Below are positions 2,367 to 11,455 of a stretch of DNA of 13,511 bases, one piece after another. Origin of the DNA: a candidate division WOR-3 bacterium (GTDB lineage: Bacteria; Hydrothermota; Tepidihabitantia; SM23-42; JAOAFX01); the NCBI GenBank assembly GCA_037444665.1, contig JBBILZ010000059.1, positions 1 through 13,511 of the forward strand, in the 5' to 3' direction. The translations under genes were made by a program, and so were the position numbers. The notes under the pieces are model-generated. The model was not told where the DNA came from, did not search any database, and was given only the letters and a program-made list of their open reading frames with translations. Position 1 is the stretch's first letter, and each line of letters starts with the position of its first letter.

Positions 2367-2513
2367 AAATGCATAAAGAGAATATCGGCGATAACCAATT
2401 TTGATTTTAATCAGAGCCTTGGGAAATTTTTTTATTTTTCCCAGGAATGGCATTCTCTTAACAAGCATTTTCCCAATAGCTTTATGGAAGTGCCTGAAAT
2501 ATACCTGAAGGAG

Positions 2514-3740
2514 TCAACTATGAAGAATTGGCGCCGGAATCAGAGGTGATTCAGGATGACGAATATCAGAGAAGGTAATTTTTCTGTTGAGCAGGGTATA
2601 GAGGACGCGCAGGAGTTTGTTTGCGGTGGCGATAACGGCTTTTTTATGTTTCATTCCCTGTTTCCTTTTCCGTTCGTAGTAGATACGAAACATTTGGGTG
2701 TAAAGGATAACATCCTGGGTTATCTGATAGATTGTCCGGCGCAGATGGCGGTTACCTCGTTTGGAGATTTTATATTGACCTTTGAATTTTCCGGATTCTT
2801 GAATGATTGGATCAATGCCTGTGCCGGCGATGATTTTTTTATGGGATGGGATATTCTCAATAGTTGGCATTTCAGCGATGAAGTTAGCGGCGGAAAGTTC
2901 ACCAATACCCGGCACCGAAGTGAGGATATTCATCTGTTCTTGATGGCTGGTATTTACTTTTTCAATGAATTTTGGCTTGAGCCGAGCCAATTCTTCTTCC
3001 AATTTAAAAAGTCTTTTGATGCAACTTTTCAGGATTTCCTCTCGGTTATCATCGTCAATACTGATGGTATTGTGAGTTATTTCTATAACTTCGGTGGCGG
3101 TGAGTCTTATTTTTCGGCCTTTGCCACGGGAAATTTTTATAATGATTTCGGTGATTCTTTCCTGATTCATTTCTCGGGCGACTCTTGCGGAAGGGATTTC
3201 CAGCAGGAATTCAAGCATGGTTTTGGTGAGGATGTTATATTTTGTTCCCAGTTCGTTGAAGATATTGAAGGTGATTTGTTTGATTCGGTTTTTAAGTTTG
3301 GCGATTTCCTGGGCGATTATTTCATATTCTCGGCCGAGGAGTTTAGTGGAATTGGTGGTGGTATAGTTTTTGATTTTGTCGGGGTTTTTGAGCAAGAAGC
3401 TGGCGATGGTTTTTGCCGAGATTTTGTCGGTAGTGGTTTTTCGCAAGGTGTTTGCTTTTTTGAAGTTTTTGACCAGCAGGGGATTGAGGAGTGTGATATT
3501 ATAGCCTCTATTGGTAAGGAAATTGAGGATATTGATATGGTAGCTGCCGGTGGATTCAATACCGATTGCGAGGTCTTGTGGGTTGCCGATGGTTTGCAGG
3601 TATTCAAGGATTTCGTTAAATCCTTCTTTGGTTTGAGAGAATCTTTTTTGGTTGATAATTTTTTCTTCTGTGTCAAGGACACAGAGGTCCAGGGTATTAA
3701 GGGATGCATCTATGCCGATAAAATATTTATAATCAGGCAT
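2514..3740 (-). CDS. IS110 family transposase/recombinase (DEDD RuvC-like plus Tnp20 domain)
   Basis: FIGID (D11), IESTGSYH (E62), LLNP, KTTTDKISA (D105, S108), SVPGIG, GIDP..QESG (S316), ISKRGNRHLRR, AVIATANKLLRVLY; SD AAGGAGG upstream of the ATG. Confidence 0.95.
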   Translation of the reverse strand: MPDYKYFIGIDASLNTLDLCVLDTEEKIINQKRFSQTKEGFNEILEYLQTIGNPQDLAIGIESTGSYHINILNFLTNRGYNITLLNPLLVKNFKKANTLRKTTTDKISAKTIASFLLKNPDKIKNYTTTNSTKLLGREYEIIAQEIAKLKNRIKQITFNIFNELGTKYNILTKTMLEFLLEIPSARVAREMNQERITEIIIKISRGKGRKIRLTATEVIEITHNTISIDDDNREEILKSCIKRLFKLEEELARLKPKFIEKVNTSHQEQMNILTSVPGIGELSAANFIAEMPTIENIPSHKKIIAGTGIDPIIQESGKFKGQYKISKRGNRHLRRTIYQITQDVILYTQMFRIYYERKRKQGMKHKKAVIATANKLLRVLYTLLNRKITFSDIRHPESPLIPAPILHS

Positions 3741-3766
3741 GGTGGGGCCTCCTTTTTTGCCTTAAA

Positions 3767-3924
3767 TGGATTAAATAATGGAAACAGGATGCTTTCTCTT
3801 CCATCCTCCAAAGTGATCCGGGATCTATGTCCCAACCAACTTATTGGGAATGGAGAAAGCAGGGGACAGACTCCTTCACGGGCTCTTGGCCCAGGTCGTA
3901 TGTCGTCCCCCTGTTTCCAATCCA
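3767..3924 (-). ncRNA. Putative bridge RNA of the IS110 element
   Basis: Non-coding end 5' of the recombinase with nested stems (given on +): GGAAACAGG 3780-3788/CCTGTTTCC 3910-3918; TGCTTTCTC 3790-3798/GAGAAAGCA 3853-3861; GGGGAC 3862-3867/GTCCCC 3905-3910; GGGC 3880-3883/GCCC 3889-3892. Loop sequences match the target and donor. Exact ends unknown. Confidence 0.8.
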
Positions 3925-3962
3925 TCAATTTTTGTGGCGGATTAAGTTCCATTAGTTCCATA

Positions 3963-3998
3963 ATTATATCAATATTATATCCAAATTCAACATAGGAG
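3963..3998 (-). promoter_or_regulatory. IS110 left-end promoter elements
   Basis: Two TATAAT boxes on minus (3974-3979 and 3963-3968); internal TTGAAT(3985-3990)-N16-TATAAT; the circle junction would give TTGACT-N17-TATAAT. Confidence 0.7.
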
Positions 3999-4003
3999 GT
4001 CAT

Positions 4004-4774
4004 TTGAATATCATTGTCTGCATAAAAAGGGTGCCTCAGACTGCTGAGGCAGATGTAAAAGTTGATGTTTCAGGTAAGGATATAGTTAAAGACCGTCTCG
4101 CCTTTGATATGAATGAGTCAGATACATACGCATTAGAACAGGCAATTTTACTAAAAGAAAAACACGGTGGGACAGTTACAGCCATCAGTCTTGGTTATCC
4201 TGATACTGAGGATACTTTGAGAATTGCCCTGGCAAAGGGGGCAGATACGGCAATCAGAATAAAGGCTGAGGAATTTGGCGAGATTGATGGTTATAAGACG
4301 GCAAAGGTTCTCAGTTCAGTAATAAAAACTTTTCCTTTTGACTTAATACTGACAGGCTGTATGTCAACTGATTATGCCTATTCACTTGTTGGCCAGACAC
4401 TCGCTGAACTTGTTGGAGTTCCTCATGCTACACTCGTTACAAAACTTGAGATTAATGACAATCGTGCACAGGTATATCGGGAACTTGAGGGTGGACTATT
4501 AGAACATCTGGATATTACCTTGCCGTTTCTGGCAACAATTCAAACAGGAATTAATACTCCACGCTTTGCTTCACTCATTGCAATCCGCAGGGCTGCGAGC
4601 AAAGAGATAAAGGTGCTTGGCAGTGCTGATATTGGACAGGACATTCTTGCCAATACAATACTTGAAGAATTGTTCGTTCCTCCAGTTGGCAAACGGGCAG
4701 AGATTCTCACTGGATCAGTGGATGAAGTGGCAACAAAATTATCTACGGTTATAAAAGATAAAGGCTTAATATAA
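4004..4774 (+). CDS. etfB: Electron transfer flavoprotein subunit beta
   Basis: MNIIVCIKRVP, NESDTYALEQA, ALAKGAD, DLILTG, RELEGG, INTPRFAS; TTG start after AGGAGG. Confidence 0.95.
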   Translation: MNIIVCIKRVPQTAEADVKVDVSGKDIVKDRLAFDMNESDTYALEQAILLKEKHGGTVTAISLGYPDTEDTLRIALAKGADTAIRIKAEEFGEIDGYKTAKVLSSVIKTFPFDLILTGCMSTDYAYSLVGQTLAELVGVPHATLVTKLEINDNRAQVYRELEGGLLEHLDITLPFLATIQTGINTPRFASLIAIRRAASKEIKVLGSADIGQDILANTILEELFVPPVGKRAEILTGSVDEVATKLSTVIKDKGLI

Positions 4775-9454: not shown

Positions 9455-9601
9455 ATCAAAATATTTTTCTGGAATCTGACAAGGCAGGGTTTCACTTTTC
9501 ATTATTTGCCGTATAATTATGCGAAAAATCCGAAATTCTTCAATTCATCAATTTGACAATTGTCGAATCGTCAAATGGAGATTGCTGAAGAAGTCTTCTT
9601 T

Positions 9602-9696
9602 TGTCACCCTGAACTTGTTTCAGGGTCTAAAAATGTATTTATTTTAGACGTCATTCCGAACTTACTTTGGGATGCTGAAACAAGTTCAGCATGACA
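9602..9696. repeat. Cluster of three TGTCA-type palindromic repeats (two direct, one inverted)
   Basis: TGTCACCCTGAACTTGTTTCAGGGTCT 9602-9628; GTCATTCCGAACTTACTTTGGGAT 9650-9673; inverted GATGCTGAAACAAGTTCAGCATGACA 9671-9696. Confidence 0.8.
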
Positions 9697-9748
9697 TTCC
9701 TTAGAGTGACACTTTTAGGGTGGATGCCATACCTTCGCAAAAAAGTGC

Positions 9749-9776
9749 TTGACAGTAAAGAATATTTGTATATTAT
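9749..9776 (+). promoter_or_regulatory. Sigma70-type promoter, likely native promoter of the beta-propeller gene
   Basis: TTGACA-N16-TATTAT; predicted +1 falls at about the IS91 ori boundary. Confidence 0.6.
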
Positions 9777-9782
9777 TTTATC

Positions 9783-10017: not shown

Positions 10018-11217
10018 TTATGGTGGCTGGTAATGTCTAAGGCTATTCAATTCTTTTGAGAAATAAACAATCTCAACCAATTTCATTGGTTTATGGCATA
10101 CTGGACAGGCCAATGGGTCAATGTCGGTGAGTGTGATATGTCTTGAGCGCCAATTTTCCTGGTTGATTAACTGTTGTTCCCGGTTAAGAGCGGCAAAGAC
10201 CAAGGGCAACAATTCTTTTTTTGCCCGATTAGCCAGGGCACCATAATAGCGGATCTGACGGAAATGGGGTGGCAGAATATGTTGAATCAAAAGGCTGATG
10301 AAATCTTCAACCCGAACGATTTCTCTGATTTCTGGTTCATCATGGGGTTTGACGGAGAAACTTACACACCATTGATTAGGTCCAAACTCTTCACGCTGTC
10401 GGTAATCAAGGATTCTACTTTCTGCGATTGGTGGTCTTTTTGCGTAGCGGGCAGTATAGCTGAGGGAAAATTTTTCTGTGGGTAGTTCTTTTGAGTCATG
10501 GACATACCAATTGATTTCCAAAAGGGGATTAAAGAAGCTATCAAGGCCTTGTGGATCTCTGAAGACCTCGAGTTCTCCACAACTGGAGTGGTGTTGGAGG
10601 TATTGGGTGATTTTTTCTTTAAGGAATGTGATAGTTAAGGCGCGGTATCTTTTATGGAGCATGACAAAGGGTATGTAGCTACATCTTTTCCAGCGGTTAG
10701 TTGGTTGGTTATTTTCTATGATTAGGCCGCCAGCGGTTATTAAGAGATGGATATGACAATTAAAGTTGACTCTTCGGCCAAAGGTATGGACTGCTGCGAT
10801 AATCAAGGGTAGGAGGTGTTTTTCTTTATAAAAGGAGAGGACGGTTTGGCTTGCAGCTTTGAATAGGGAATTGATTAAGAAGGGATATTGTTGGAATAAT
10901 CCGCGTAAGGTATCTGGGATGGTGAAGCAGATGTGATGGAAGGGTGTTTTGGGGAAGATGGCTTGGACCTTGGCGATGAGTTTATCAGTCAGTTTTTTGC
11001 CGCAGGAGTTACAGAAATTGGATTTACAGGTATTAGGGATGAAACGGCATTGCCAGGGGTGGTCTGGGCACTGATAGACATGGTAGCCCAATTTTTCTGG
11101 GTCTCGGCAGGAAAGCATTTTGTTGACGGTGTCGATGACATATTGGGGGAGGTTTTGGTGTTTAGCGAGGTAATCGGGCCAATGGCGTTTAAAGATTTGT
11201 TTAATTGAATAAGGCAT
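10018..11217 (-). CDS. IS91 family transposase
   Basis: Zn-binding CRDP..LGY..YQC...CKSNFCNSCG, HHICFTIP, HUH region VHTFGRRVNFNCHIHLL, Y2 motif YTARYAKRPP, QHILPPHFRQIRYYG, C-terminal CPVC. Start placed at MPYSIKQIF. Confidence 0.93.
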   Translation of the reverse strand: MPYSIKQIFKRHWPDYLAKHQNLPQYVIDTVNKMLSCRDPEKLGYHVYQCPDHPWQCRFIPNTCKSNFCNSCGKKLTDKLIAKVQAIFPKTPFHHICFTIPDTLRGLFQQYPFLINSLFKAASQTVLSFYKEKHLLPLIIAAVHTFGRRVNFNCHIHLLITAGGLIIENNQPTNRWKRCSYIPFVMLHKRYRALTITFLKEKITQYLQHHSSCGELEVFRDPQGLDSFFNPLLEINWYVHDSKELPTEKFSLSYTARYAKRPPIAESRILDYRQREEFGPNQWCVSFSVKPHDEPEIREIVRVEDFISLLIQHILPPHFRQIRYYGALANRAKKELLPLVFAALNREQQLINQENWRSRHITLTDIDPLACPVCHKPMKLVEIVYFSKELNSLRHYQPP

Positions 11218-11227
11218 AAGGTATATT

Positions 11228-11455
11228 ATGGCGATAATTAACTTTAAATGCAATAGGTGTGATGAGGTATTTGATTGTGATGTGGGTGAGATAAATTTTG
11301 AGTTGGTTAATTGGCGACCACAGTTTGAGCGAGAAATTGTGTGTCCGAACTGTGGTAAGTTAACTTTGGACGATGTTGAATTGACTGAGTTTGGTCAGTC
11401 ACAACTAACTGAATTATGGTGGATAGATGCTGAAAGAAAACAGCGTAAAAAATAA
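11228..11455 (+). CDS. Small Zn-ribbon protein (IS91 passenger)
   Basis: 75 aa; CNRC...CPNCG; basic C-terminus; divergent from tnp with only 10 nt between start codons. Confidence 0.65.
   Translation: MAIINFKCNRCDEVFDCDVGEINFELVNWRPQFEREIVCPNCGKLTLDDVELTEFGQSQLTELWWIDAERKQRKK

Follow-up and report, generated by a model that had tools for sequence, protein, structure and literature searches.

Predicted IS621-type handshake bases in the bridge RNA of an IS110-family element from a candidate division WOR-3 bacterium

The window analysed here, by which we mean the whole 13,511-nucleotide stretch of candidate division WOR-3 contig JBBILZ010000059.1, carries on its minus strand a segment that its sequence identifies as an intact IS110-family insertion sequence, with boundaries placed where homology to 7–9 close relatives begins and ends (Table 1). 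In the recombinase that it encodes, PF01548 (DEDD_Tnp_IS110) matched residues 8–156 (E 7e-26, 91.3 bits against a cut-off of 29) and PF02371 (Transposase_20) matched residues 271–356 (E 2.2e-21, 76.5 bits against a cut-off of 21.3). The protein has the N-terminal DEDD RuvC-like domain and the C-terminal Tnp domain with a catalytic serine that are expected of the IS110 group, and residues D11, E62, D105 and S316 were invariant in an alignment of 28 sequences (alignment A2). Read in the orientation of the element, the left junction is AAATGAC-CT-CCTATGTTG, with the core at 3998–3997, and the right junction is TAGTTGA-CT-CCTTCAGG, with the core at 2513–2512; both element boundaries thus carry the identical dinucleotide core, CT, that an IS110-group member should have. 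A 479-codon antisense open frame (2556–3995, plus strand) spans nearly the whole element and is probably not a gene. Elsewhere in the window, a minus-strand gene at 10018–11253 encodes an IS91-family transposase with Y2_Tnp and Zn_Tnp_IS91 domains. Around 240 bp past the 3′ end of that gene lies a long inverted repeat (9596–9779), which gave weak, sub-threshold Rfam microRNA matches on both strands and may be one end of an IS91-family element.

Table 1. Features of the IS110-family element and its flanks, in window coordinates (guide, handshake, target and promoter-like features are predictions)
Feature	Positions	Strand	Details
IS110-family element	2512..3998	-	element proper 3996..2514; CT core copies 3998-3997 and 2513-2512
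Recombinase gene, 408 aa	2514..3740	-	PF01548 and PF02371
Bridge RNA core	3780..3918	-	closing helix P1 (3918-3911 with 3787-3780) enclosing target-binding and donor-binding arms
Left target guide AUACGAC + core CU	3893..3901	-	same sense as left flank AAATGAC-CT (4005-3997): 5/7, core 2/2
Right target guide UGAAGG + core AG	3871..3878	-	complements CT-CCTTCA (2513-2506), 6/6 and core
Target-loop handshake dinucleotide UC	3869..3870	-	would pair donor GA (2515-2514), not flank AC (4000-3999)
Left donor guide AAGUUGG + UU	3834..3842	-	same sense as right end TAGTTGA-CT (2520-2512)
Right donor guide region	3806..3819	-	ends GG + core AG (3809-3806), pairing CT-CC (3998-3995)
Donor-loop handshake dinucleotide GA	3804..3805	-	G3805 would pair flank C3999; A3804 against A4000, unpaired
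Left target half AAATGAC	3999..4005	-	complement of spacer and TTG start of etfB
Right target half CCTTCAGG	2504..2511	-	also element-free on contig C84: ribosome-binding site of ferredoxin-like gene
Promoter-like site within left end	3963..3990	-	TTGAAT, 16 nt, TATAAT; 10/12 matches
Putative circle-junction -35 box TTGACT	2512..2517	-	donor TTGA + core CT

Relatives of the recombinase proved to be scarce within the phylum, where 5 of 272 genomes, the present one included, held a match at E ≤ 1e-40; the protein database returned 382 matches at E ≤ 1e-60, only two of them above 60% identity. A single-protein search of genome contigs gave 126 pattern matches, none of which was confirmed, and it was replaced by a search with alignment A2, through which we obtained 79 loci from metagenomes and 80 from genomes. 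The close-relative set comprises eight elements (the window element, L010, L011, L006, L007, L089, L012 and L009) that align without gaps over 139 nt (3918..3780). To avoid circularity, junctions in the relatives were located by conserved end motifs, leaving the guides unused. Among 146 usable RNA rows both junctions could be uniquely located in 97, and after exclusion of a degenerate copy (L009) there remained 91 distinct RNAs for the handshake counts. Two guide-based ways of finding junctions were tried and set aside. Location of left junctions via the right donor guide failed at most loci, with 2–3 mismatches, because that guide pairs poorly, and motif-based location was used instead; location of right junctions via the right target guide alone gave probable chance matches, at odd distances, in 14 of 65 loci.

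The 256 nt from the left junction to the gene form a long non-coding left end, as in other IS110-group elements, and are predicted to contain a structured RNA with two internal loops (minimum free energy −78.6 kcal/mol, z −2.88). In the predicted fold, an 8-bp closing helix encloses two arms, one for the target and one for the donor. Each has an outer stem and an inner hairpin separated by an internal loop, whose 5′ and 3′ sides are 12 and 12 nt long in the target arm and 16 and 15 nt in the donor arm. When the eight close relatives were aligned (alignment A3), 98.1% of cells were paired across the three outer or closing helices and the two inner hairpins, with four compensatory pairs. A covariance model built on this fold (R1) recovered the RNA in 150 of 163 sources (74/84 and 76/79). 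Across 72 distinct wider relatives from the first source set (alignment A4), 91.7% of cells were paired and 24 of 33 pairs showed compensatory changes; in the closing helix (3911–3918 with 3780–3787), all eight pairs covaried. An Rfam scan of the window found no bridge-RNA family, and its four weak, sub-threshold matches were to unrelated microRNA and sRNA models. Upstream of the fold, some 18 extra bases (window ~3923–3941) separate the promoter-like boxes of the left end from the closing helix; these bases are absent from all seven close relatives and from the related contigs of runs X3 and X4. A search among RNA runs found none that contains the locus.

We assigned guides within the two loops following the definitions in Durrant et al. 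(PMC11208160), and predicted guide pairing of the kind expected of the IS110 group was found in both the target loop and the donor loop. The variable positions of the left target guide track the flank in relatives (8/9 in L006, for example). The right target guide likewise follows the right flank, with UG against CA in the window and UA against TA in L006; its positions RT+1 to RT+5 were paired in 88, 72, 75, 70 and 57 of the 91 relatives, and at RT+6 pairing dropped to 21/91. For the left donor guide we counted five Watson–Crick pairs and one wobble among seven positions, with one Watson–Crick pair and one wobble at the core. Right donor guide positions RD+1 and RD+2 were paired in 90/91 relatives; beyond GG-AG, pairing was weak and discontiguous in the window (four Watson–Crick pairs and one wobble of seven, with a 1-nt bulge) and clear in L006.

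The original prediction held that the guides extend into complements of the junctions formed by recombination. A script run on the window sequence bore out that 3869–3878 (GACTCCTTCA) is the exact reverse complement of 2506–2515, and 3805–3809 (CCTCC) is the reverse complement of 3995–3999 (GGAGG). The first match is not due to chance: the exact 10-mer has no occurrence in the 13,511-base window beyond these two, one per strand, and with up to one mismatch it has four matches against 0.76 expected from 200 shuffles, of which two reached four. The 5-nt match is weak by itself, GGAGG recurring near 3752 as the recombinase gene's own ribosome-binding site, and it becomes meaningful only through its position in the RNA fold and its conservation in relatives. 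We also considered the 10-mer as a Shine–Dalgarno mimic with a translational role and rejected this; it lies in an internal loop of the conserved fold and varies with the right flank.

Placed on the fold, the UC and G singled out by the original prediction lie directly 3′ of the core-pairing AG in the right target and right donor guides, where IS621 has its handshake dinucleotides. As had been predicted, the UC that follows the right target guide complements the donor GA, which lies inside the element and constitutes positions 6–7 of the donor left half, and not the AC of the flank; in the donor loop, the extra base G3805 complements flank C3999 and not donor A2514. Its neighbour A3804 closes the outer stem in the close relatives, as a U-A pair in 8/8. 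In the window element, then, none of four predicted handshake pairs is available before strand exchange and three of four are available after it. The probability of this pattern arising by chance in the single window element is about 1/64, so the weight of the handshake pattern comes from the relatives.

Across the 91 distinct bridge RNAs, a predicted pairing partner for the target-loop bases was present at donor positions 7 and 6 in 89 and 52 (plus 4 by wobble), as against 7 and 4 (plus 19 by wobble) at the target's own positions. For the donor-loop bases the counts were 80 and 58 at target positions 7 and 6, as against 1 and 3 (plus 31 by wobble) at the donor's own. A third base was paired in 3/91 target loops and 6/91 donor loops, so that the predicted complementarity ends exactly two bases past the core in both. 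This corresponds to the IS110-group arrangement in which handshake dinucleotides 3′ of both right guides match positions 6–7 of the non-cognate DNA. With the two loops taken together, 4, 3, 2 and 1 pairs would be available after exchange in 31, 36, 23 and 1 of the elements, and 0, 1 and 2 pairs before exchange in 77, 13 and 1. The original prediction had proposed that homologous elements be compared with their donor and target flanks, and in that comparison non-cognate pairing after exchange prevailed, pairs after exchange outnumbering those before in 90/91 distinct bridge RNAs.

The donor-loop bases also follow their targets. Against the real left flanks, the donor-loop handshake bases formed 138 of 182 pairs, compared with 118.9 ± 4.3 when flanks were shuffled among loci; none of 2000 shuffles reached 138, in a test that shared ancestry inflates. 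Two further left junctions of the window RNA, found in the sample contigs, carry TC and AC as flank bases 6–7, and both fit. One subgroup, in which the donor-loop handshake begins with A, had mostly A or C and not T at target position 7 (6 A, 3 C, 3 T). On the donor side, the end TAGTTGA is invariant in the relatives, an invariance that motif-based junction location partly forces; with right ends located via the target guide alone, TAGTTGA was present at 51 of 65 loci, and the other 14, at odd distances, look like chance matches. Since the donor GA is invariant across the clade, its predicted pairing with UC is a matter of conservation and not of covariation. The original suggestion of a conserved directionality device is thus supported by the asymmetry, which is kept in all but one of the 91 bridge RNAs, with 'conserved' to be read, for UC:GA, as invariant rather than covarying.

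The second target-loop handshake base varied: 51 of the 91 have C there and 32 have G, the remaining eight having U (four of them), A or other. G at this position would give a G-G mismatch, in 32/91 relatives and also in the close relative L011, and it often accompanies U as the second donor-loop base (20 cases). In 19/91 the second target-loop base would be able to wobble-pair with the target's own base before exchange. The C/G split could mark sub-lineages with different insertion/excision balance.

A different cause can be proposed for the constancy of the donor GA. In an excised circle, the box TTGACT, a 17-nt spacer (3996–3980) and TATAAT (3979–3974), read here from the separate ends, would align as a predicted near-consensus promoter that exists only in the circle. 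The handshake-paired GA may never vary because it is part of this predicted TTGACT box. On a rival reading, RNA folding or contact with the recombinase would keep the guide-extension bases conserved, the donor GA would be a −35 box or recombinase site, and the complementarity of the two would have no strand-exchange role in the clade. That both UC and GA are invariant or nearly so, with no compensatory change, and that the second handshake base is mismatched in the 32 relatives with G, is what such a reading would allow, as is the position of GA within TTGACT. We nevertheless regard it as improbable, given that complementarity halts after two bases in both loops, that it is aimed at the non-cognate partner in 90/91, that the donor-loop bases track variable left flanks better than any of the shuffles, and that for IS621 direct mutational and structural proof has been presented (PMC11208158, PMC13626964).

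Another reading concerns the position of the core. The sequence CTCCT is common to both junctions of the window element and its close relatives, so the flanks alone leave core placement ambiguous, and a crossover at the second CT (3995–3994 and 2510–2509) would make of the 10-nt match a 3-nt right guide followed by a long donor-side extension. Distant relatives with the same RNA architecture, however, have TAGTTGA-CT-GAAATC at the right junction and CTTC-CT-CCTACC at the left, with only the first CT in common. In addition, the left target guide ends in ..GAC-CU directly before the inner hairpin, and the distance between the core-pairing AG and the outer stem is constant in 91/91. A crossover at the second CT is therefore highly improbable, and the predicted CT core, which the original prediction had assigned correctly, is confirmed by the distant relatives independently of the handshake argument. 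The right-end core was CT in 87/91 relatives; in a subgroup with CA at the right end (L106, L107, L124 and L126), UG replaces AG in both right guides, which reads as a natural co-change of core and guides. We give least credence to the view that, purine-rich words resembling ribosome-binding sites (AAGGAG, GGAGG) being common, complements of the junctions arise meaninglessly in the left end, for while the 5-nt match is trivial, the exact 10-mer is confined in the window to its two places, a conserved fold holds the positions constant, and relatives whose targets are quite different show the pattern again.

The sites occupied by these elements are of one kind. In all eight close relatives the element lies antisense to its target gene, within the ribosome-binding site; their left flanks (window 3991–4005; L006, L007, L009, L010, L011, L012 and L089) are the complement of AGGAGG, a 4–5 nt spacer and a start codon, which is ATG in 7/8 and TTG for the window's etfB. 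The left target guide has an unchanging CAU, which would recognize the start codon, and the left end of the element restores GGAGG for the target gene.

Element-free versions of both flanks (window 2506–2513 and 3994–4030) were present on other contigs of the same assembly, with flank genes there named from their translations. The left flank occurs on contig C26 (32520–32635), continuing as ..TTTTTTAAGGA-AGGAGG.., right after three genes for acyl-CoA dehydrogenase, the usual partner of etfBA. The right flank occurs on contig C84 (7636–7758), as the ribosome-binding site and start of a ferredoxin-like gene that is followed by 2-oxoacid:ferredoxin oxidoreductase subunits. Both empty sites diverge from the window exactly at the core. 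Contigs of the likely source sample contained both empty sites and two occupied junctions, with element depth at ~3x flank depth, and in a related population from another study both sites were empty. The flank genes were on different contigs in 6/6 same-genus genomes holding both. The two flanks consequently derive from different loci, and the 'target' that the original prediction had rebuilt from them does not correspond to a contiguous site; as judged from the empty sites, two ribosome-binding-site targets are brought together by the element, one contributing its left half and the other its right half. We saw neither of the reciprocal junctions, in the same assembly or in the sample contigs.

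Possible origins of this two-locus junction are homologous recombination between two copies, a recombinase-mediated event (deletion or rearrangement) and a mis-threaded assembly. It could in particular represent a natural bridge-RNA-guided rearrangement, in which the right junction recombined with a second matching site to give a deletion or translocation. We think this unlikely, with plain homologous recombination between two copies as the alternative; if it were true, exchange would be favoured by the handshake bases to the same degree at either site. The left half of the other site ends in TC, which would have no pairing with UC and full pairing with the handshake GA. The handshake reading is independent of which left flank is taken. 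A full second copy was sought in the same genome as a natural covariation test, and all that emerged was a 3′ fragment of 332 bp on contig C6 (63736–64067; L002/L004), located at the contig end and sharing 95% identity with the final 330 bp of the gene. Its right end, ..CATAATAC-CT-CCTTTTT with AC as bases 6–7, is compatible neither with the left donor guide nor with UC as a handshake, and its left end is unassembled. The sample contigs contained a single left-end unitig, variant-free among the variants listed and at ~3x flank depth. The C6 copy probably shares the left end and bridge RNA of the window element, and so gives no covariation test.

Handshake guides were named and tested in IS621, where pairing with non-cognate DNA promotes exchange and cognate pairing blocks it, and covariation at position 7 was reported across IS110 orthologues (Hiraizumi et al. 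2024, PMC11208158). The 2026 structures of IS621 excision describe handshake bases as setting the balance between insertion and excision, with one pair before exchange and three after, and call the pattern highly conserved among IS110 elements (PMC13626964). Right donor guide pairing in IS621 is described as discontiguous and weak, and a circle-junction promoter is described as well (Durrant et al. 2024, PMC11208160). The window element has much in common with IS621: a recombinase with DEDD and Tnp domains; a left-end bridge RNA with target and donor loops; a CT core; 5′ loop sides that read the bottom strand and 3′ sides that read the top strand, core included; a dinucleotide 3′ of each right guide that matches positions 6–7 of the other DNA after exchange; poor, discontiguous right donor guide pairing; and possibly a promoter across the joined ends. 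The handshake counts are similar, zero before and three after exchange in the window element. It differs from IS621 in that an 8-bp helix joins the 5′ and 3′ ends of its predicted RNA, where the IS621 description has a 5′ stem-loop; in that its left donor guide would read the core through U-G and U-A, having UU and not CU; and in that it targets a ribosome-binding site together with a start codon, where IS621 targets a repetitive element. By target type alone, the window element resembles the IS900 group of mycobacteria, IS110-family members whose insertion point lies between a gene's ribosome-binding site and its start codon; a literature search on ribosome-binding-site targeting by IS110 members did not find older reports.

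Taken together, these observations are consistent with the following scheme. The bridge RNA encoded in the left end would have one loop that binds the target and one that binds the donor. In the target-binding loop, UGAAGG-AG (3878–3871) would act as the right guide, and the UC that comes next (3870–3869) as the handshake dinucleotide. Unable to pair with the target's own pre-core bases (AC, or TC at the other candidate site), UC would pair with GA, the last two right-end bases of the element, once the top strands have been exchanged. In the donor loop, GG-AG (3809–3806) would pair with the core and the first two left-end bases, and the partner of G3805 would be the C of the incoming target, not the donor A. 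By the rule established for IS621, a rise from zero to three handshake pairs would drive insertion forward and disfavour excision. An IS110 element with IS621-type handshake bases that favour post-exchange pairing is, in our judgement, very probably the best explanation of the data. Our evidence consists of the sequence relations, the RNA fold and the conservation of both in relatives; that the handshake pairs form and bias the reaction would follow by analogy with the IS621 experiments. The comparison of relatives supports the same device as in IS621 operating in this clade. That device is already in the literature for IS621, where it is described as conserved throughout IS110, and no new principle is involved here.

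What the analysis adds is an extension of the published handshake rule to a distant, uncharacterized IS110 clade, represented by about 150 bridge RNAs from environmental genomes and by recombinases 31–84% identical to that of the window. The leads that go beyond what is known are only two, the C/G split at the second handshake base and the occurrence of an element at the junction of two loci. The handshake rule can be read from sequence alone, which aids the annotation of bridge RNAs and the choice of natural scaffolds.
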